Shown in pieces: positions 57 through 31,381 of a stretch of 32,000 nt of DNA. Under the pieces are notes generated by a model. The model searched no databases, was not told where the DNA came from, and saw only the letters and a program-made list of their open reading frames with translations. The stretch is from Akkermansia muciniphila ATCC BAA-835 (GTDB taxonomy: Bacteria > Verrucomicrobiota > Verrucomicrobiia > Verrucomicrobiales > Akkermansiaceae). Every line of letters starts with the position of its first letter. The stretch's first letter is position 1. Both the position numbers and the translations under genes were made by a program. The stretch covers positions 2,100,001 to 2,132,000 of the forward strand of contig NC_010655.1 of NCBI RefSeq assembly GCF_000020225.1, given 5' to 3'.

Positions 57-254
57 AGCGGATTAAAAATTCGCCGTGTAATGGGAACCGGGCCAATATA
101 CCAGAGTTGCCCCGCCTGTTTGCTTATACTGATAAGGATAGAACGATGGATGCCCCTGATTCCAGACCAGATAAAGCATGGAAATACTCTTCTGGATGAT
201 GCGCAACACCTACGGAATCAATGTTTAAGCTTGTAGGAGGATTTTTAATCCGCT
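57..254. repeat. Perfect 14-bp inverted repeat pair bracketing a 170-bp AT-rich segment upstream of the autotransporter gene; candidate invertible promoter element
   Basis: AGCGGATTAAAAAT at 57-70 is the exact reverse complement of ATTTTTAATCCGCT at 241-254. The match stops on both sides (56/255 and 71/240 do not pair). The right arm ends 63 nt before the ATG at 318. The repeat is read directly from the sequence; inversion is inference. Confidence 0.45.
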
Positions 255-317
255 AATGATGGTAAAAAGCCTCCTGTCAGTTTTGGGAGGAATTTCACGT
301 ACGCCCTTTTAAAAACT

Positions 318-3300
318 ATGAAGTTGCACCTCCCTTTAAGTCTTTTGTCCTCCCTGCTTGCCTGCATGGCTGCTGTTTCCTCACCGCATGCCGTTGCGGA
401 AACCTATACATGGCTGGGGGGGACGGTGGATGTTCATTTAAATACTAACTGGACTCCGGATTACGGCAGCAGCAACTGGTCGGCAACATGGGCCGGAACG
501 GCGACAAACAGCATGCGTTTTGATGCGGGTAGCATGACGGGGCAGGTCAAGGCTCTCCAGGCTTCTTTCAATACGCTTTCACTTGGGGGAATAACCGTTA
601 CGGATAATTCCGATGGATTCAGCGTTTCCAAAAGCAACGGCTCCAACCGCACCGTTAATTTACGTGATGGAGGAGAAGGGTATACGCTGTTTGACATAGG
701 CGGGGATTTTTCTCTGGGAGTTGCCAGCCAGGTATGGAACGGAGTTGTTTTCAACTCCAGCGCCCTGTTTAACATTGCCTCCGGCAAGACCATGAATATT
801 TACGGTGGTCTGGGAATGGCTGGAACGGGAGCCAGGACGATGACGGTGGGGACGGACGGTTTTGCGGGAACCCTTATCCTGAATACGGCTGCCCAGTCTT
901 CCATGACGGCTGATTGGGTCATTTCCCATGGGGCGACCGTTCAACTGAACAATGCCGCGGCTTTGGGGTCCGGATCGGTCAGCTTAAACGGCGGCAATAT
1001 AACGGCCCAGCACGATGCTGTTTATAACAATGCCCTGGCCGTGAGCGGTTCTTCCGGCATGAACGTGAATGCTGCCACGCGGTTTGCCAGTGTCAGCCTT
1101 TCCAATGCCGCTGTCCTGAACATGAACGGAGGGACGCTTGGCATTGCGAATGCCGGCGTTTTGACACTGGGTTCTTCAGGGACCATTACGGGGAATTTGA
1201 CGCTGGGAAACACGTCTCTCCTGAATTTTTCCGCTCTTCCGGCTTCCGGATCATATTTGCTTAATGTAACAGGAACGCTGACCGTGGGCAGTGAATTGCT
1301 TCTGGGGCAGGAAACGATGGAAGGCGTAGCCTGGACGGAGGGTTCCTACAGTCTGGTTCATGCGGGTTCCGTAGAGGGAGTCCCTGCCAGCTCTTTCGTT
1401 CTGGGCGACAATCTTCTGGGTTCATGGAGCACGGAAAACAATAATCTTACCCTGGTTGTGGAGCAGGTGGCTTTGCTTGAATGGAAAGGCGGCGACGGGA
1501 TATGGTCTGTAACTGCTCCGGCTTCTTCACCGTGGAAAAATGAAGGTGTGTACAATAATGCTTCCGGAGTGGTCATGGGAGATATTGACGGAAGTTCTCT
1601 GCAAACAGTAACCATTGATGGAGTTGTCTCTCCCTCAATCATGATGGTCCAGGCGGATACGACGGATTATGTGTGGAATGCCGCAGATGAAGGAGGTGCT
1701 CTGGAAGGCAGCGGTAATCTGGAGAAGACCGGCAGTGCCAAGCTGACCATTAATATGGATAATGCTGATTATGCCGGAAAGGTCATTTTGGGGGGTGGAA
1801 CGCTTGAAATGGGGAATGATGCCGCTTTAGGCACAGGTGATCTGGCATTTGACGGCGGTACCCTCCGGTATGGAACAGGGGTAACGGCGGATATTTCCGG
1901 GCAGATTTCCACAACGAGCAAAAGTTCCGTGAAGGTGGATACCAACGGTAATAACGTAAGCTGGGCTTCCGCGGATCATTACAAGGCTCTGAACTTGGAA
2001 AAGTCCGGGAACGGTGTGTTGACTCTCGGCGGCGCCGTGTATACGGGGGGCCTGACAGTAGATGAAGGAGGCGTGTCCATTACTTCCGGCAGTGTTCAAA
2101 CGAAGTTTTCTGCGGGAGTCACGGTAAATGCAGGAGGAACGCTTGCCATTTCCAGCGCCATTAACGGAATATCGACCGGAGACAACGCCAATATCGTCAT
2201 CAACGGCATGAGCGGAGCGGGGCGGATTGAGCTGGACAACCAGGCTGCCAAATCCCGTTTTTATATTTCCGGAGATAATTCTTCCTTTACCGGGGAATTG
2301 GTGGCGACCGGACTGAACAATAATCCGGGAAATACGAATGATGCCCGCGATCTTCAGTTTGCCACTGCTGCCAGTATGGGAAGAGGAACGGTAACCCTGA
2401 ATGGACGCGGGTTCTGGCTGGGAACCGCCAATTCGGCGGATACCGCCGTCATGGCAGCAATCAATGTTCTGGAGAAAGGTTCCTATCTGAACGGGGGAAG
2501 CGGAAATTCCTATTACTTTGGCGGGGCGTTTACCGGTTCCGGCACCATGACCACGGCTCTGGGCAATGCGTTCGCATATTTGACGGGAGATATGACCGGG
2601 TTCCAGGGAGCATTCTCCCACACGGGTGATTCCCTGTTTACCTGGGCATTCGGCAACAATACGGAGGCAGTTCTGAATGATGGAAAGCTTTTCGGGGATG
2701 GAGTGGTTTTGAAGGCTGATGGAGGGACAAGCCAGTTTAAATTCTCCTATACCAACGATATTATACTGATGAACGCCACTGTAGGCGCAGAAGGGGCCTT
2801 GAACGCCAGGGTGGAACAGGCCGGAACCGGAACGCTGGTGCTAACGCAGGACAATAGCGCGACGGGAACGCTCACCATTACCAGCGGCACGGTTCAGCTG
2901 GGCAATGGAGAGGTTTCCGGCTCCTGGACAGGGCAGATTACCGGAGCAGGGGCTCTGGTGGTGGACAGGTCTGCAGGTTCCTCTGCTCTGGAACTGAACT
3001 CCGCCAACGATTATCAGGGTGGAACTACGCTGAACGGCGGCACAGTGAAGGCGTTGGGCGCCGGTTCCTTGGGAACTGGCGATGTTTTCGTCAACGGCGG
3101 TTCCATCCTGGATATGAACGGACAGGCGATTGCCAATAATGTCGCTATTACCAAAGGAGGGCTGCAACATGCCGGGGCCTACGCCACGTCGGGCGGCGTA
3201 ACCGTAAATGCGGAGGCTGATTCCGGGGACATTGACCTGGGAGGCCTGTCCGGCGACAAAGTGGGGGGCATCAATACCACCACGGCGGGAACGGCCATTA

Positions 3301-6179
3301 CCGGCCTGACGGGAAATTTGACGCTGACGGGGAATAATGCCCTGCATGTGGGGGTGGAAAATACCACGTATGCTTCTGACGGAGACCAGAAAAGTCTGAT
3401 TCAGTTCAATGATGCGGCTACGGGGACTGTTTCCTTAGGCGGAGATTCTTCCGATCTCACGCTGCACATGGATATTGATACGGATATCCTGATTGCCATG
3501 CGCGAACTGGATTCTGTCGGTATCCTGCTGACAGACGGGACGATTACCGGATTGCCGGACAGCGGTCTGGTGGCGTGGCTCAACCAGCATCTTACGTTTA
3601 ATGCCACACTGGAAAGCCTGGGGTTCGGCATCCAGGGAGTGGATGGAGGAAACATTATCATTTCCGGAAGAACGGACCAGATTTACATTGCTTCCGTAGA
3701 CGGTTCCTCAGTGACGGAAATTCCGGCTTTGAATTCCTATGCCCAGGTGATTGTTGATAAGGATCTTTCTCTGAATTTTGATGTTCCCGCATCTAATACG
3801 GACAAGACCATCGTTCGTCATCTTTCCTCCGGCACCAGCGCTACTGGCAATCTGGCAGTGAATGTCGCCGGAGAAGGTTCCTTGAATATTGAACTGGCCA
3901 ACGATTTGGACGATTCCGTTTTTAACGGAAATCTTATCGTAAACGGAAACGGTGCGGACCTGGTCAAAACAGGAGAAAAGACGCTGGTATTGAATGGGAG
4001 TGTCAGTACATCCAATGCAGTGATTGCCAAAGAAGGCACACTGGTTCTGAACGGGAGCGTCAACAACATCGGCACGCTGGCTTTGGCCTCCGCTTCTGCA
4101 GATGCAATTGCGCGTACCGTGATTGGTGGGACTGTCACAGCCACTCTGTCGGATGAAGATGAAGGCGGTTCCCTGGAGATTGCTGCGGGGGGAACACTCA
4201 AGACCGCCGGAGATTCCGTCCTGGACCAGGCGACCTCCATTTCCGGAGCAGGGAGTTTGAATATTCAGGAAGGTTCCGCCCTCTCCCTGACGGGGAAAGC
4301 CGGCCTGTCCGGAACTTCCGTGACGCTGAACGGAACGCTGGGTCTGTCCGGGACTGGGGAAAAATCCATCCAGTCCCTCTCCGGTTCCGGAACGCTGGCG
4401 TTGAACGGCGGCACTCTGTCTGTCACTTCCGCTTCCGCCAGAAACGGTTCTTTCTCCGGTACGCTGGATGGAGAGGGACGTATTGACGTATCCGGCAGCG
4501 TAACCCAGGTAATGCAGACAGGAAGCTCTACGTATGACCTGGGCGTTCATGGAGGGGGGACGCTGGTATTAAAAGGCACTTCTGCCGCCCCTGCGCTTGA
4601 TTACCGTAATGTTGCAGTAGGTTCTGCCGGCACCCTGCGTATTGAAGCCATTGGGCATGAGGCCGGAGACTCCAATACCTCCTTAAACGTCGGCAGCATT
4701 GATTTTCAAAGCGGCTCTACGACGGAATTCGTTTATAATTTAAGTGCGTCTGATCCTTTCGGCTCCGCTATGCTGACGGCGGATTCCATCACCATTGGAA
4801 ATGGGGCGGGATTCTCTCTTGCCAACATGGAAGGCAACACGGGGCTGGGAACGTATGACAACCTGGACGGCGTGGTGCTGATGACAGCGGACACGATTGA
4901 CGGACTGACGGAGGGGGAATCCATATCCGTGGGGACTTCCGGCCTGTTTGCCGTTTATTACAAGGATGCGACCATGAGCCGGGAGGGCAATCATATTGTG
5001 CTGAATGCCACGGTGCAGCAGGACAATATTTTTACGCCTGCGGTGAATTCCCATAATTCCGGAGCAGGTTCCGAACTTCTGTGGGAGGCAAAAAATAATC
5101 TGGATGCCACTTCCCAGCTTGGGCAGGCGATGCATTCCATCAGCACCATGATTACGGGAGATAATCCCGACTTGGCGGGGGCATCCAGGGCTTTGGCAGC
5201 AGTGGCTGGGAGCACGGTCAACGCGCTGGGGACGGCACAGAGGGACGCCCTGCGCGACCAGATGGGCTGGATCAGGAACCGGACCACCCTCATGGGCGTC
5301 AACCCGGCCTACGTCAACGACGACCTCCCCCGCTTCCACATGTGGATGGAAGGCACGGGCTCCTACGCCAAGCTCGACACCCGCGGGGATGAAAGCGGCT
5401 ACCAGCTCACCACCTGGGGAGGCACGGTAGGCATGGACGCGGACCTCAGCGACCGCCTCACGGTGGGAGCGGCCTTCACGGCCGGCTACGGCGACCTGAC
5501 GGCCGGCGCGGCGGACAGCGCCGACGGGCACCTGGACAGCTACTACGCCAGCCTCTTCGGCCGCTACCAGGACAGGCGCTGGGCGCACACGCTCATCCTG
5601 ACGGGAGGGTGGAACGACGCGAAACTCAACCGTACGGTCAACTATGGGGAAGGAAGCTACGGGACGCAGGGAAGCACCAGCGGGTGGGGCTTTGGAGCGA
5701 TGTATGAACTCACCTACGACGTATACCTCAACGAAAACCGCAGCAGCGTGCTGCAGCCGCTGTTCAACGCCTCGGTGGTGACGACGCGGATGGACGGCTA
5801 TGAGGAAACGGGTGCGGGCAACGCGGGCCTGAACGTCGGCAGGCAGGACTGGACGACGGGGACGCTGGCGCTGGGCGGCCGGTGGATGGGCCTGGTGGGC
5901 AGCAACATCTTCGGACGAGAAGCGCTGGCGGAAATCCGAGTAAACGCGGCGCAGGACCTGGGAGACCGGAGAGGGGAAACGAACGTCTCTCTGCTGGGCA
6001 ACCCCGGCTTTGCGCAAAGCGTGAGGGGGGCGAAAGAGGGAACGACGGCGCTGCAGCTGGGAGCCGGACTGAGCGTGCCTGTAGGAACGAAGGGAACCAT
6101 CTACGTGAACGGGAACGCGGACATCCGTGACGGGTCCAGCGCACTGAACGGAAGCGTCGGCTACCGCTACGACTTCTAA
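318..6179 (+). CDS. Giant autotransporter outer-membrane protein (1953 aa): signal peptide, long beta-strand-repeat passenger, C-terminal autotransporter beta-barrel
   Basis: The N-terminus MKLHLPLSLLSSLLACMAAVSSPHAVA is signal-peptide-like. The Gly/Thr/Asn/Leu-rich passenger carries recurring units such as EKTGSAKLTINMDNADYAGKVILGGGTLEMG, EKSGNGVLTLGGAVYTGGLTV and GTLVLTQDNSATGTLTITSGTVQLG, typical of autotransporter-associated beta-strand repeats. The last ~280 aa (HMWMEGTGSYAKLD...GAAFTAGYGDL...SVGYRYDF) have alternating-pattern barrel strands and a terminal aromatic F. Confidence 0.93.
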   Translation: MKLHLPLSLLSSLLACMAAVSSPHAVAETYTWLGGTVDVHLNTNWTPDYGSSNWSATWAGTATNSMRFDAGSMTGQVKALQASFNTLSLGGITVTDNSDGFSVSKSNGSNRTVNLRDGGEGYTLFDIGGDFSLGVASQVWNGVVFNSSALFNIASGKTMNIYGGLGMAGTGARTMTVGTDGFAGTLILNTAAQSSMTADWVISHGATVQLNNAAALGSGSVSLNGGNITAQHDAVYNNALAVSGSSGMNVNAATRFASVSLSNAAVLNMNGGTLGIANAGVLTLGSSGTITGNLTLGNTSLLNFSALPASGSYLLNVTGTLTVGSELLLGQETMEGVAWTEGSYSLVHAGSVEGVPASSFVLGDNLLGSWSTENNNLTLVVEQVALLEWKGGDGIWSVTAPASSPWKNEGVYNNASGVVMGDIDGSSLQTVTIDGVVSPSIMMVQADTTDYVWNAADEGGALEGSGNLEKTGSAKLTINMDNADYAGKVILGGGTLEMGNDAALGTGDLAFDGGTLRYGTGVTADISGQISTTSKSSVKVDTNGNNVSWASADHYKALNLEKSGNGVLTLGGAVYTGGLTVDEGGVSITSGSVQTKFSAGVTVNAGGTLAISSAINGISTGDNANIVINGMSGAGRIELDNQAAKSRFYISGDNSSFTGELVATGLNNNPGNTNDARDLQFATAASMGRGTVTLNGRGFWLGTANSADTAVMAAINVLEKGSYLNGGSGNSYYFGGAFTGSGTMTTALGNAFAYLTGDMTGFQGAFSHTGDSLFTWAFGNNTEAVLNDGKLFGDGVVLKADGGTSQFKFSYTNDIILMNATVGAEGALNARVEQAGTGTLVLTQDNSATGTLTITSGTVQLGNGEVSGSWTGQITGAGALVVDRSAGSSALELNSANDYQGGTTLNGGTVKALGAGSLGTGDVFVNGGSILDMNGQAIANNVAITKGGLQHAGAYATSGGVTVNAEADSGDIDLGGLSGDKVGGINTTTAGTAITGLTGNLTLTGNNALHVGVENTTYASDGDQKSLIQFNDAATGTVSLGGDSSDLTLHMDIDTDILIAMRELDSVGILLTDGTITGLPDSGLVAWLNQHLTFNATLESLGFGIQGVDGGNIIISGRTDQIYIASVDGSSVTEIPALNSYAQVIVDKDLSLNFDVPASNTDKTIVRHLSSGTSATGNLAVNVAGEGSLNIELANDLDDSVFNGNLIVNGNGADLVKTGEKTLVLNGSVSTSNAVIAKEGTLVLNGSVNNIGTLALASASADAIARTVIGGTVTATLSDEDEGGSLEIAAGGTLKTAGDSVLDQATSISGAGSLNIQEGSALSLTGKAGLSGTSVTLNGTLGLSGTGEKSIQSLSGSGTLALNGGTLSVTSASARNGSFSGTLDGEGRIDVSGSVTQVMQTGSSTYDLGVHGGGTLVLKGTSAAPALDYRNVAVGSAGTLRIEAIGHEAGDSNTSLNVGSIDFQSGSTTEFVYNLSASDPFGSAMLTADSITIGNGAGFSLANMEGNTGLGTYDNLDGVVLMTADTIDGLTEGESISVGTSGLFAVYYKDATMSREGNHIVLNATVQQDNIFTPAVNSHNSGAGSELLWEAKNNLDATSQLGQAMHSISTMITGDNPDLAGASRALAAVAGSTVNALGTAQRDALRDQMGWIRNRTTLMGVNPAYVNDDLPRFHMWMEGTGSYAKLDTRGDESGYQLTTWGGTVGMDADLSDRLTVGAAFTAGYGDLTAGAADSADGHLDSYYASLFGRYQDRRWAHTLILTGGWNDAKLNRTVNYGEGSYGTQGSTSGWGFGAMYELTYDVYLNENRSSVLQPLFNASVVTTRMDGYEETGAGNAGLNVGRQDWTTGTLALGGRWMGLVGSNIFGREALAEIRVNAAQDLGDRRGETNVSLLGNPGFAQSVRGAKEGTTALQLGAGLSVPVGTKGTIYVNGNADIRDGSSALNGSVGYRYDF

Positions 6180-28216: not shown

Positions 28217-29266
28217 TTATTTCTTCCGAAATGGGGAGAATCTGTTCAGTATGGAGGTGTTCCATTCCACAAAGGACTGGAGTGTAGGAACCGGAATGTT
28301 TAATTGCTCCGCCAGATAGCAAATGGGTTTGGTGCCCAGAGGAACATCTTCCGTAAAGTAACGGGAAGAAAAATCGGGAATCCATCCTTGTTTCCGGCGG
28401 GTCATGGGAGCTTTAACCCCATGGAATGCCGGAATAGATTGAATCTTTTTAGTCAACTCTACGGCATTTCTGGATTCATAATAATCTAGGACGGGAATGA
28501 TGTCCTTTCCGATTTCCATGCCGGGACAACAGGAACAGAGGGTCAGAAGTTCTCTATCTGCCTGGATGTACAACTCACTGGCCTCCTCCGTCCATTCTTC
28601 ATAAAAAAGAAACTGCTTGTCATAAAACGTTCCTTCCCTGTAGTGGCGAAACAGACTCATGCAGCGGGAAGGGTGGAGAAGGGGGTTGGAGTTGGTCAAC
28701 AGAAAGGGCCAGGGAGAAGAAAGATGAGTCAGAGGAGTGTCAAATAAGGTTTCCAACATGGCGGACCAATGTTCGGCATTATTTCCTGGGGCTACCCATA
28801 TCCTGTTAAGAGGGCGGCTTCCGAGAATGGAGACGGAATGTCCATATTCCTGCGTCCGACAAATCAGGGGAACCTTGTATATTCCCATCAGGCTGACGGT
28901 GGAAGTCCAAGAGGGATCTTCTGCCATCTCCATGACCTCCGGAGTACCGGGTACAATAACGAGCCCCTGTTCTCGATGCAGATAGGGTTTAATGCGGTGG
29001 CATACCTCCCGAATGCCAAAGCGGGGAACCGCCACCAGCACAAGGTTGCAGTCTTTCAATGTTTCCGGATGGTTGCTGATATGCCCTAGGGGAGCATGGT
29101 GCGTAGTACCGTTTGGAAAGATAGCGGAGAGACTTTTTCCCCATTGATTAGGGTTTCGGGTTAGGATATTGACATGTAGGCCGCGTGTACCCAGCCATCC
29201 CGCCATGGCATGGGCCAGGTTGCCGCCGCCGCAAATGCCTATGACAGGAGTGGAAATTGTATTCAT
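28217..29266 (-). CDS. NAD(P)-dependent octopine/nopaline (opine) dehydrogenase-family protein
   Basis: The N-terminal Rossmann motif is VIGICGGGNLAHAMAGWLGTRG. The ~350-aa size and the motif LLTNSNPLLHPSR resemble the opine-dehydrogenase family. The family call rests on my recognition only. The ATG shares one nt with the upstream stop (TGATG). Confidence 0.68.
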   Translation of the reverse strand: MNTISTPVIGICGGGNLAHAMAGWLGTRGLHVNILTRNPNQWGKSLSAIFPNGTTHHAPLGHISNHPETLKDCNLVLVAVPRFGIREVCHRIKPYLHREQGLVIVPGTPEVMEMAEDPSWTSTVSLMGIYKVPLICRTQEYGHSVSILGSRPLNRIWVAPGNNAEHWSAMLETLFDTPLTHLSSPWPFLLTNSNPLLHPSRCMSLFRHYREGTFYDKQFLFYEEWTEEASELYIQADRELLTLCSCCPGMEIGKDIIPVLDYYESRNAVELTKKIQSIPAFHGVKAPMTRRKQGWIPDFSSRYFTEDVPLGTKPICYLAEQLNIPVPTLQSFVEWNTSILNRFSPFRKK

Positions 29267-31158
29267 CAGGAGGCTGAAGTGGAACAGGATGAAAAAGGGG
29301 ATTCTCCGTTAGTGGGACAAGTAGAAGACGGTTCCGAGCCGGTTTCTGCATGCATGGCCCGGACCAGGGCATCATTGTCGGTTGCGTCTCTGACGGCGAT
29401 ACGGATGAATTCTCTGCCTTCAAATCCTTTTTTCCGGCTACAGTCCTTAACAAGGATGGAGTGGTTTTTCAGCAGAAGGCCGGTCAGGGAGCGGGCTTTC
29501 ATGGGGGGCTTGACCTCGCACATGAAATAGTTTGCCTGGGAGGGGAAAACGTTCAGGAAAGGCACGCGGGAGAGTTTCTGCATGAAGCGGTCCCGTTCCT
29601 TCATGAAACGGTTGCACGCGCGCACGTAGGATTGCTCGTATTTCCCGAAGATTTGCATGTAGAATTCCGCGATGGAATTGATGTTCCAGATGGAAACGTC
29701 TTTTTTTATCCATGCCGCCAATTCCCTGTCTGCGGAGGCCAGAACACCCAGGCGGAGGCCCGGAACGCCGTAGGATTTGGAAATGCTTTTTACCACGGCC
29801 AGGTGGGGATATTCTTCCAGGATGCCGTCTTTCAGCAGCGTATTGTCCGGCATTCCGCAGGAGAAGTCTACAAAGGATTCATCCACGATCAGGCGGATGC
29901 CGCGGGTTTTTGTCCACAGGCAGAGGCGTAGCACATCGCCTTTCGGCAGGAAGAATCCGGAAGGGTTTCCCGGATTGACGAGGAGCAGGGTACCGATGTC
30001 TTTCCCGGAAAAGAATTCCATCAGGTCGTCCGCCGTATAAGTGAAATTCCGGGAAGCGGTATGGAAGGGAACCACCATATCCGGTTTCACCCGGTTGGGG
30101 TATTCTTCAAAGGTAGGGTAGATGACCCCCATTTTCCCTTCCAGGCGGGACATGAGCGCCTTAATGAGTTCCGCCGCGCCGTTGCCGATGCAGATGTATT
30201 CCTGGCTGATGCCGAAGTATTTTGCCGCCAGCAGGCTGTTGACTCTCATTCCGGACGGGTATTCCCTCACTAGGCGTTCAAAATTCGCCTTGAGTTCGGA
30301 CATGAGGCGTTTGTTGGGGAAATAGGGATTGACCAGGTAACAGAAATCCCTGATGCGGGGATAGCGCCAGTAGCCTCCGTACCGGGATTCCATCAGGCGC
30401 AGGTGTTCTTCCCTGTCCGGGGTGAATATGGAGGCTGCGATGTCCAGATCCTGGATGTCGTCTATTTCATACCATGCTTCGCCGCCGAGGCGCAGCGCCT
30501 TGATTTCCGGCTTGTCCAGCAGGGCGATGACCCGCAGCACCTGTTCGTAATATTCATTATTGCCCAGGGCTTTGCTGTAGGCTGTAAGAAAGGGGACGTA
30601 ATGGGTCCGGGAGAATTCCCTGCTGAATTTGTAAATATTGACTGTTTTAAAATATTCCGTCTTTTTCTTGTAGGAGAATTTGCTGCCGGGAATGAATTGC
30701 CTGATGTTGTCGTCTTCATCCAGAGTGACGACCGTGCCGTCCATCCAGCTTTCAAATTTGGCGACGAGAGCAAGGCTGGGGTAGGGATGGCGGAGCAGGG
30801 CATCAATAACGGAGTCTTCAAAAATCAGGTCGGATTCAAAGAGCAGCGTATCGTCCTGAAGCAGGTGTTCCTTGGCCAGGTACAGGGAATAAATATTGTT
30901 GGTGCTGGCGTACAGGGGATTGTCCACATATTCCACAGGGGTGGAAATGTCCAGCTGGGAAAGGAAGGTTTTGAGTTTTTCCCCCTCATAACCCGTAACA
31001 ATCACGATTTTTTCCAGAGACGGGGAAAGGCGGTCCAATTGTCTCATCATGCGTTCTATCAGCGTCACTCCGTTGACCTGGATCATGCACTTGGTATTGT
31101 TCCGGGTGAGCGCTCCCAGTCTTTTTCCCATTCCGGCCGCTAAAATGATCGCCTGCAT
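29266..31158 (-). CDS. Fusion protein: LicC-like sugar/alcohol-phosphate nucleotidyltransferase (aa 1-~245) + CobD/HisC-like class I/II PLP enzyme (aa ~260-600)
   Basis: The N-terminal part is MQAIILAAGMGKRLG...TKCMIQVNG...NNIYSLYL...AWYEIDDIQDL, which parallels the CTP:phosphocholine cytidylyltransferase LicC. The C-terminal part has DFCYLVNPYFP, LLLVNPGNPSG, the PLP-lysine context VKSISKSYGVPGLRLGV (K461) and FIRIAVR. It ends in a Ser/Thr/Pro-rich 25-aa tail. Confidence 0.85.
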   Translation of the reverse strand: MQAIILAAGMGKRLGALTRNNTKCMIQVNGVTLIERMMRQLDRLSPSLEKIVIVTGYEGEKLKTFLSQLDISTPVEYVDNPLYASTNNIYSLYLAKEHLLQDDTLLFESDLIFEDSVIDALLRHPYPSLALVAKFESWMDGTVVTLDEDDNIRQFIPGSKFSYKKKTEYFKTVNIYKFSREFSRTHYVPFLTAYSKALGNNEYYEQVLRVIALLDKPEIKALRLGGEAWYEIDDIQDLDIAASIFTPDREEHLRLMESRYGGYWRYPRIRDFCYLVNPYFPNKRLMSELKANFERLVREYPSGMRVNSLLAAKYFGISQEYICIGNGAAELIKALMSRLEGKMGVIYPTFEEYPNRVKPDMVVPFHTASRNFTYTADDLMEFFSGKDIGTLLLVNPGNPSGFFLPKGDVLRLCLWTKTRGIRLIVDESFVDFSCGMPDNTLLKDGILEEYPHLAVVKSISKSYGVPGLRLGVLASADRELAAWIKKDVSIWNINSIAEFYMQIFGKYEQSYVRACNRFMKERDRFMQKLSRVPFLNVFPSQANYFMCEVKPPMKARSLTGLLLKNHSILVKDCSRKKGFEGREFIRIAVRDATDNDALVRAMHAETGSEPSSTCPTNGESPFSSCSTSAS

Positions 31159-31205: not shown

Positions 31206-31381
31206 GTTTAACGGATTGAGCATCCGCCGTCAAAGTAAAAATTTCTGTAAGAATATGTTAATGGGATATTACCCGGGCGAAAAGAAAAAACCGCCTTTTA
31301 TGTTTCATCGCAATCCTTTTATTTTTCATTGATTTAACTTTGGACAGAATGGGAGAAACGTTTAACGGATGCTCAATCCGC
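31206..31381. repeat. Two 22-nt lox-like sites, identical except for a reverse-complemented 5-nt core, flanking 139 bp in a divergent promoter spacer; candidate inverton
   Basis: Site 1 at 31206-31227 is GTTTAACGGAT-TGAGC-ATCCGC. Site 2 at 31360-31381 is GTTTAACGGAT-GCTCA-ATCCGC. This is equivalent to a perfect 15-nt inverted repeat, CGGATTGAGCATCCG (31212-31226) and CGGATGCTCAATCCG (31366-31380). Confidence 0.5.

Follow-up and report, generated by a model that had tools for sequence, protein, structure and literature searches.

Akkermansia muciniphila ranks among the leading candidates for next-generation probiotics, and what the host sees of it is its surface. The stretch of DNA analysed here (hereafter the window; 32,000 nucleotides) corresponds to positions 2100001–2132000 of the closed 2,664,102-bp genome of strain ATCC BAA-835, and it begins with a pair of short inverted repeats placed directly upstream of a giant autotransporter gene. 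This arrangement raises the question of whether the DNA between the repeats is a promoter-bearing segment that inverts and, if so, which of its two orientations serves the gene. We propose that positions 57–254 very probably constitute an invertible promoter of the Akkermansia CGGATTnnnAATCCG family, which would impose reversible phase variation on the 1953-aa autotransporter. An invertible segment between short inverted repeats had been the core idea of an initial annotation of the window, and it is borne out both by membership of the locus in this family and by naturally flipped copies.

The recombination sites and their genome-wide family

The sequences AGCGGATTAAAAAT (57–70) and ATTTTTAATCCGCT (241–254) were re-read and are exact reverse complements, as annotated; the inverted-repeat match continues to 19 nt at 89% (57–75 against 236–254). 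The right repeat lies 64 bp from the ATG at position 318, which opens, also as annotated, the 1953-aa reading frame of the putatively regulated gene (318–6179, plus strand). The encoded protein contains an autotransporter β-domain (PF03797, E 3.9e-40) and PATR repeats, and its gene is the downstream member of a tandem autotransporter pair. The upstream 1845-aa autotransporter-like paralogue ends at window position −150, which leaves an intergenic gap of 467 bp. Beyond the end of this paralogue, at about −88 to −58, lies a conserved terminator hairpin. Since the 1845-aa gene has its own terminator, the 1953-aa gene needs a promoter of its own within the 467-bp gap. Besides the region itself, a BLAST search of 41–320 against the genome returned short matches to the arms and a weak resemblance to a sister switch, and nothing else. 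The plus-strand TATACT reported previously is present at 125–130.

Each repeat corresponds to a recombination site with a 15-bp dyad core. The left site (57–75, strand-neutral; core 59–73) reads CGGATT-AAA-AATTCG, with a perfect outer half-site and one mismatch in the inner half-site, and the right site (236–254, strand-neutral; core 238–252) reads AGGATT-TTT-AATCCG, its one mismatch likewise falling in the inner half-site. Accordingly, the left arm CGGATTAAAAATTCG and the right arm AGGATTTTTAATCCG each carry a single mismatch to the dyad CGGATTnnnAATCCG, and a perfect left arm is found in the orthologues of two other lineages. The centre triplets, AAA on the left and TTT on the right, are reverse complements of each other. 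The two sites are intergenic, inverted and spaced 179 bp start to start, which is the geometry of the family. Measured from site centre to site centre, the invertible segment spans 68–243 (~176 bp, strand-neutral) and is essentially the segment 71–240 that had been proposed to invert. The initial annotation had considered that absence of the arms from close relatives retaining the gene would argue against a switch; both sites are kept in 20 orthologous sequences from four Akkermansia lineages. The left flank varies across lineages, unlike the arms, the hexamer TTGTAG and the TA of the −10-like element, which are invariant.

The family was delineated across the whole genome, in which 75 perfect inverted repeats (at least 14 bp, with spacers of 30–750 bp) were found, as opposed to 3–6 in block shuffles preserving composition. 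About half of the 75 have the 15-bp dyad CGGATTnnnAATCCG as their arm. When at most one mismatch was allowed, the dyad occurred at 105 genome sites versus 7 in a shuffle. These sites included 46 neighbouring pairs, which lay mostly 145–300 bp and at most 443 bp apart (spacers of about 130–300 bp), and the centre triplets were reverse-complementary in 46/46 and in direct orientation in 0/46, the chance of one triplet match being ~1 in 64. The triplet varies between loci yet always matches inside a pair, which is what a crossover region needing identity between partners would look like, and locus-specific triplets would also block recombination between neighbouring switches. Judged by their sequence, the arms at 57–254 are two copies of the Akkermansia inverton dyad CGGATTnnnAATCCG and not a product of chance. 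Since the arm is recognisable as a copy of a family site, the earlier reservation about the evidential weight of an AT-rich 14-mer has lost its force.

These data bear on two other explanations of the repeats. A chance repeat, or a long-range RNA stem formed in the 5′ leader without DNA rearrangement, would be compatible with an arm that is AT-rich and perfect over 14 bp. However, chance is refuted by the excess of repeats over shuffles, by the specific family dyad and by the existence of flipped DNA copies, and an RNA stem is countered by the lack of any match in an Rfam search of 1–600 and by the left arm being upstream of any plausible transcription start of the gene, so that this explanation retains a negligible probability. 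A small non-autonomous mobile element of the MITE type, with the arms as its terminal inverted repeats, would account for short terminal repeats around ~170 bp and for the many pairs in the genome. Against it, different loci have unrelated interiors, the promoter module and the sister paralogue excepted, orthologues of the locus are found in conserved synteny in four lineages, and its natural variation consists of in-place inversion instead of presence or absence. We consider a mobile element to be extremely improbable.

The sister inverton (genome 2094059–2094248; window −5942 to −5753) is 190 bp long and is found 6 kb upstream of 57–254, 65 bp upstream of the first autotransporter gene. Its arms are CGGATTAGCAATCCG and CGGATTGCTAATTCG, it possesses a canonical TTGACgg promoter end, and the intergenic region containing it aligns with the 57–254 locus over the whole length. 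The sister centre triplets, AGC/GCT, differ from AAA/TTT at 57–254, and recombination between these two neighbours is therefore not expected. If both autotransporters have independent switches, four surface states could arise from one clonal population at this locus alone.

Elsewhere in the genome, two family invertons were observed back to back within 600 bp (1677826–1678419), with centres AGG/CCT and TCA/TGA. Within the window, the other candidate of the initial annotation (31212–31380), whose arms are CGGATTGAGCATCCG, also belongs to the family as a canonical member. Its left-facing promoter end (TTTGACgg) is separated by 54 bp from the start of a minus-strand ORF (29266–31158), whose 630-aa product joins a nucleotidyltransferase to a class I/II aminotransferase.

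Inversion in natural populations

The 57–254 locus undergoes precise inversion in natural Akkermansia populations. The comparison of both orientations among strains and assemblies that had been suggested in the initial annotation was performed on metagenome contigs, which were scanned with a pattern comprising the outer half of the right site and the fixed gene-side flank. This pattern is identical in either orientation. A total of 17 contigs matched, distributed over four Akkermansia lineages, and 15 of them displayed the reference orientation. The two flipped contigs belong to two different lineages, namely L013 (OHAF01008045.1), which is muciniphila-type, and L022 (OKSL01000646.1), from the lineage of genome G035.

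Contig L013 matched an in-silico flip of 68–243 at 463/501 positions, compared with 356/509 for the unflipped reference, and both of its flanks were collinear with the reference. Its left junction, at which CGGATTAAAAATCCT is directly followed by CCTACAAG, was exactly as predicted. The right junctions, likewise at the predicted place, joined ACACGG to CGAATTTTTAATCCG in L013 and CCCTAG to CGGATTTTTAATCCG in L022, and the latter contig, once un-flipped, agreed column for column with its lineage mates. In the flipped contigs the mismatched inner half-sites had moved together with the interior, and the crossover is thereby located within the 14-bp identity. Assembler k-mers exceed the arm length (14–19 bp), and the flipped junctions should therefore derive from real reads.

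The reference orientation was found in the reference genome, in three further closed assemblies (from NCBI, ~2.66 Mb, with an identical 1953-aa protein) and in the species representatives G007 and G035. Closed assemblies of the strain type were thus in the reference orientation in 4/4 cases. Extrapolating from the relatives with flipped copies, the segment would also flip in strain ATCC BAA-835 itself, for which the predicted flipped-junction sequences are CGGATTAAAAATCCTCCTACAAG on the left and CATTACACGGCGAATTTTTAATCCG on the right.

In the mechanism that we propose, the asymmetric 3-nt centres (AAA, TTT) of the 15-bp dyad sites would set their inverted orientation. A site-specific recombinase would then exchange strands within the 14-bp identity, whereupon the ~176-bp interior would flip. 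Phase variation of the autotransporter would accordingly be both reversible and heritable.

The promoter module and the polarity of the switch

A conserved module was found at one end of 37 of the 46 family members. It reads tAA....tTtttt.T.Aaaattt.a..TTGAC.. and stops 2 nt before the site. The tRNA promoters of the genome consist of an A-tract followed by TTGaC/TTGCC, ~17 nt and TAnnnT, with the A-tract directly upstream of the −35 element. By analogy with this layout, the family module would represent a UP-like tract and a −35 element, with transcription directed outward through the site.

At 57–254, this module is located at the right end. An A/T-rich, UP-like segment, GCAACACCTACGGAATCAATGTTTAAGC (204–230, plus strand), lies upstream of the −35-like element, is nearly invariant in the four lineages and is aligned with GCAACATGCATTGGATCAATGTTAAATA of the sister switch. 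It is followed by the −35-like hexamer TTGTAG (231–236, plus strand), which ends 1 nt before the core of the right site in the register of the family TTGACn; this hexamer is a 3/6 variant of the −35 element and is invariant in the 20 orthologous sequences. The right end reads gtttaagcTTGTAgg, AGGATTTTTAATCCG and cTAATGA in succession, and can be aligned base for base with the canonical ..TTGACgg and adjoining CGGATT.. of the sister, so that the promoter motif of the family is present in a variant form, TTGTAgg adjoining AGGATT. With the family matrix, the right end scored +9.0 bits and the left end −24, compared with 5.7–33.1 for the 37 promoter ends (leave-one-out), a maximum of 2.7 for 37 non-promoter ends and 4.4 for the 99.9th percentile of random positions.

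With a spacer of 17 nt after TTGACn, the −10 element would fall on outer positions +2 to +7, within the fixed flank. At 57–254, the putative −10-like element TAATGA (254–259, plus strand) is found there, 17 nt downstream of TTGTAG. It is weak, as its last base is A instead of T; the TA of this flank (254–255) is conserved in all 20 orthologous sequences from the four lineages. Across the family, TA was present at outer +2/+3 in 24/49 flanks facing a gene start versus 4/25 facing a gene end (Fisher p = 0.006), and the remainder of the outer −10 hexamer was weakly conserved. On balance, these observations lean towards a split promoter, with the −35 element on invertible DNA and the −10 element in the fixed flank. 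The interior would contribute, at one end, the A/T-rich tract and the −35 element ending 1 nt before the site, the gene-side flank would contribute the TA-initiated −10-like element, and the right site would by inference double as the 17-nt promoter spacer. Two other arrangements, a −10 element inside the arm and a module reading inward, were ruled out on spacing. A generic scan of 1–500 for sigma-70 and terminator consensus sequences gave no match, being too strict for the variant elements present here.

The position of the module bears directly on the polarity of the switch. The initial annotation had suggested that the reference orientation may be OFF, with a minus-strand element of the extended −10 type, TGGTATATT, turned toward the gene after inversion. 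The complement of 95–103 indeed reads TGGTATATT, and the prediction that it would face the gene after inversion holds true in the flipped contigs, in which the element is placed ~22 nt inward of the right site, with ~110 nt between it and the downstream ATG. It coincides with TGnTATAAT at 8/9 positions, and TATATT serves as the −10 element in tRNA promoters of the genome. Moreover, it is part of a 14-nt block, GCCAATATACCAGA (92–105; minus strand TCTGGTATATTGGC), which is 100% conserved in the 20 sequences from four lineages. Against this polarity, the paralogous block of the sister switch, AATAGACCAGAAT, gives TGGTCTATT, which lacks the critical −11 A. That the −11 A is lost from a block otherwise kept suggests that the latter is conserved for another reason. 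Furthermore, no usable −35 partner was found for TGGTATATT, and an outward promoter at the non-promoter end is not characteristic of the family, in which neither extended −10 (6 vs 10) nor TTG-N-TAnnnT motifs (8 vs 6) directed toward that end are enriched.

The family promoter module, in contrast, is at the other end of the segment and faces the gene in the reference, as indicated by the scores of the two ends and by homology with TTGACG of the sister switch. A genuine switch with the reference as its OFF state is therefore decidedly unlikely. The prevalence of the reference orientation, seen in 15/17 gut contigs and in all closed genomes, also counts against that polarity, although it is silent on which state is ON. 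Since the family promoter module faces the gene in the reference, the reference is the most likely ON state, and we hold this assignment to be probable. In this orientation TTGTAG (231–236) would be directed toward the gene, and the flip would replace the module with non-promoter DNA, the hexamer then in the −35 register being TACACG. Gene context had no power to separate the ends across the family, as in the reference 19/37 ends of either kind, promoter or non-promoter, face a gene start; such an outcome is expected if about half of the switches are in their OFF state in the reference or separate divergent genes.

A further explanation is that both orientations transcribe, from TTGTAG/TAATGA in the reference and from the extended −10 element when flipped. 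Inversion would then alter the level or regulation of expression instead of producing simple ON/OFF switching, and the gene would be expressed in both phases under different control. Both elements are invariant in four lineages and each faces the gene in one natural orientation, and the complete conservation of TGGTATATT would allow for a role in the flipped state. The objections to a TGGTATATT promoter nevertheless apply here as well, and other family members have no second promoter, which makes such a promoter swap unlikely. Also envisaged, and distinctly doubtful, is a promoter swap with a split sigma-70 promoter, in which occupancy of the site by the recombinase could modulate transcription.

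Additional elements were observed within and next to the segment. The motif ACCAGA occurs twice in invariant interior blocks, at 99–104 (GCCAATATACCAGA) and at 166–171 (GACCAGAT), 67 nt apart. The sister switch retains the first copy, and the motif may be bound by an accessory or regulatory protein. A conserved hairpin (270–290, plus strand; CCUCCUG / UGGGAGG) is found in the 5′ leader, a few nt past the predicted transcription start. Its fold energy is no better than that of shuffles (z = 0.43), and covariation between lineages is seen at one pair of the stem (U-A, C-G, U-G). A different hairpin (CAGCC..GGCUG) occupies a comparable position at the sister locus. The 270–290 hairpin may act as a stabiliser of the mRNA 5′ end or as an attenuator. 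A small upstream ORF at 256–311 (MMVKSLLSVLGGISRTPF) was discarded because its start codon is missing in another lineage.

Relation to known switches and candidate recombinases

The sequence CGGATT..AATCCG is the Akkermansia inverton motif of Jiang et al. 2019, as cited in PMC13343947. The motif is termed "group 138" in PMC11892184, where it comprises 32 invertons of A. muciniphila ATCC BAA-835 identified by read mapping and is associated with a promoter-like motif. A group-138 example given therein, 2092093–2092283, is located upstream of the neighbouring autotransporter. The sister inverton (2094059–2094248) fits this example in length and arm geometry, with a coordinate offset of 1965. If this 1965-bp offset is constant, the 57–254 locus is expected near A-mu-ATCC-BAA-835__0:2098091-2098289. 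The switch class and the sister locus are thus already published, and 57–254 is either a new or an already listed member of the family. As the mechanism class has been published, the present analysis adds detail, not discovery; its practical yield is two verified junction sequences that can serve for orientation PCR, a probable ON/OFF assignment and a shortlist of candidate invertases. In the accessible literature, orientation has been linked to a phenotype only for the family member at the cps1 capsule inverton (PMC13343947).

Like the published Akkermansia invertons, 57–254 combines dyad arms, inverted geometry, a spacer within the same range and a promoter motif by one arm, is located upstream of a cell-surface gene and is found in both orientations in gut samples. 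It is, in addition, a direct paralogue of a published group-138 inverton. It differs from them in its diverged −35 element (TTGTAG vs TTGACn), in one inner half-site mismatch per site and in the extra invariant block at 92–105, which the family lacks.

Among more distant systems, the invertible promoters of Bacteroides (capsular polysaccharide, SusC/D and fimbrial) likewise switch surface structures ON and OFF in a gut commensal, and entail many scattered promoter segments with short inverted repeats that are served in trans by one or a few recombinases (Mpi, Tsr-type invertases). They differ in having other inverted-repeat motifs and a −33/−7 promoter wholly inside the segment, and their global invertase, Mpi, is a serine recombinase, a class absent from this genome. 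Escherichia coli fimS (9-bp inverted repeats, 314-bp element, FimB/FimE tyrosine recombinases) is likened to 57–254 by architecture, as an adhesin promoter inversion of the tyrosine-recombinase type with short inverted repeats and a sigma-70 promoter reading out across one of them. In fimS, however, the element contains the entire promoter and has the recombinase genes next to it, whereas 57–254 appears to have its −10 element outside the element and to use the site as the promoter spacer. Finally, the Hin/Gin/Cin systems also invert a promoter- or gene-bearing segment between inverted sites with an asymmetric core, but they employ a serine recombinase, a 26-bp site with a 2-bp core and a Fis enhancer, and the odd 3-nt centre at 57–254 misfits the symmetric 2-bp stagger of the Hin type.

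No recombinase gene adjoins the 57–254 locus. The resolvase/invertase family PF00239 gave 0 matches in this closed, 100%-complete genome, although ~46 invertons are present; the control search was positive in 12/14 genomes. Eight genes matched PF00589. Two of them are XerC/D-like by score and length, and five others encode paralogous proteins with 37–52% mutual identity. Because the closed genome has no serine recombinase, we infer that the invertase is one or more of these five paralogous tyrosine recombinases. A 15-bp dyad with an odd centre would be better suited to a tyrosine recombinase with a ~7-bp overlap (TTnnnAA) than to a serine recombinase with its symmetric 2-bp stagger.

Three of the five paralogues (709686–710834, minus strand; 1333195–1334292, plus strand; 2436986–2438134, plus strand; genome coordinates) start 17–30 nt past a family inverton (710770–710930, 1332963–1333165 and 2436887–2437046, respectively); in the reference, the promoter-like end of each inverton points toward the recombinase gene. 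The remaining two paralogues map to 2006208–2007329 and 2029859–2030950. Phase variation may therefore extend to the inverton-fronted candidate invertases. In PMC11892184, invertases near invertons are described as generally not regulatable, and these inverton-fronted recombinase genes, if phase-variable, would be an exception to that rule. The accessible text of PMC11892184 does not tie group 138 to any invertase group, and the family recombinase is left unnamed there and in that of PMC13343947.

Two further repeats were observed close to genes of this group. Immediately downstream of the recombinase gene at 2436986–2438134, in the region 2438222–2438984, AAAATAAGGCACAGTA recurs 11 times in direct orientation, every ~66 bp, and once inverted; the region may be a tandem array, CRISPR-like or of another kind. 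At genome 2008385–2008473, ~1 kb from the recombinase paralogue at 2006208–2007329, two perfectly inverted 29-nt arms flank a spacer of 31 nt.
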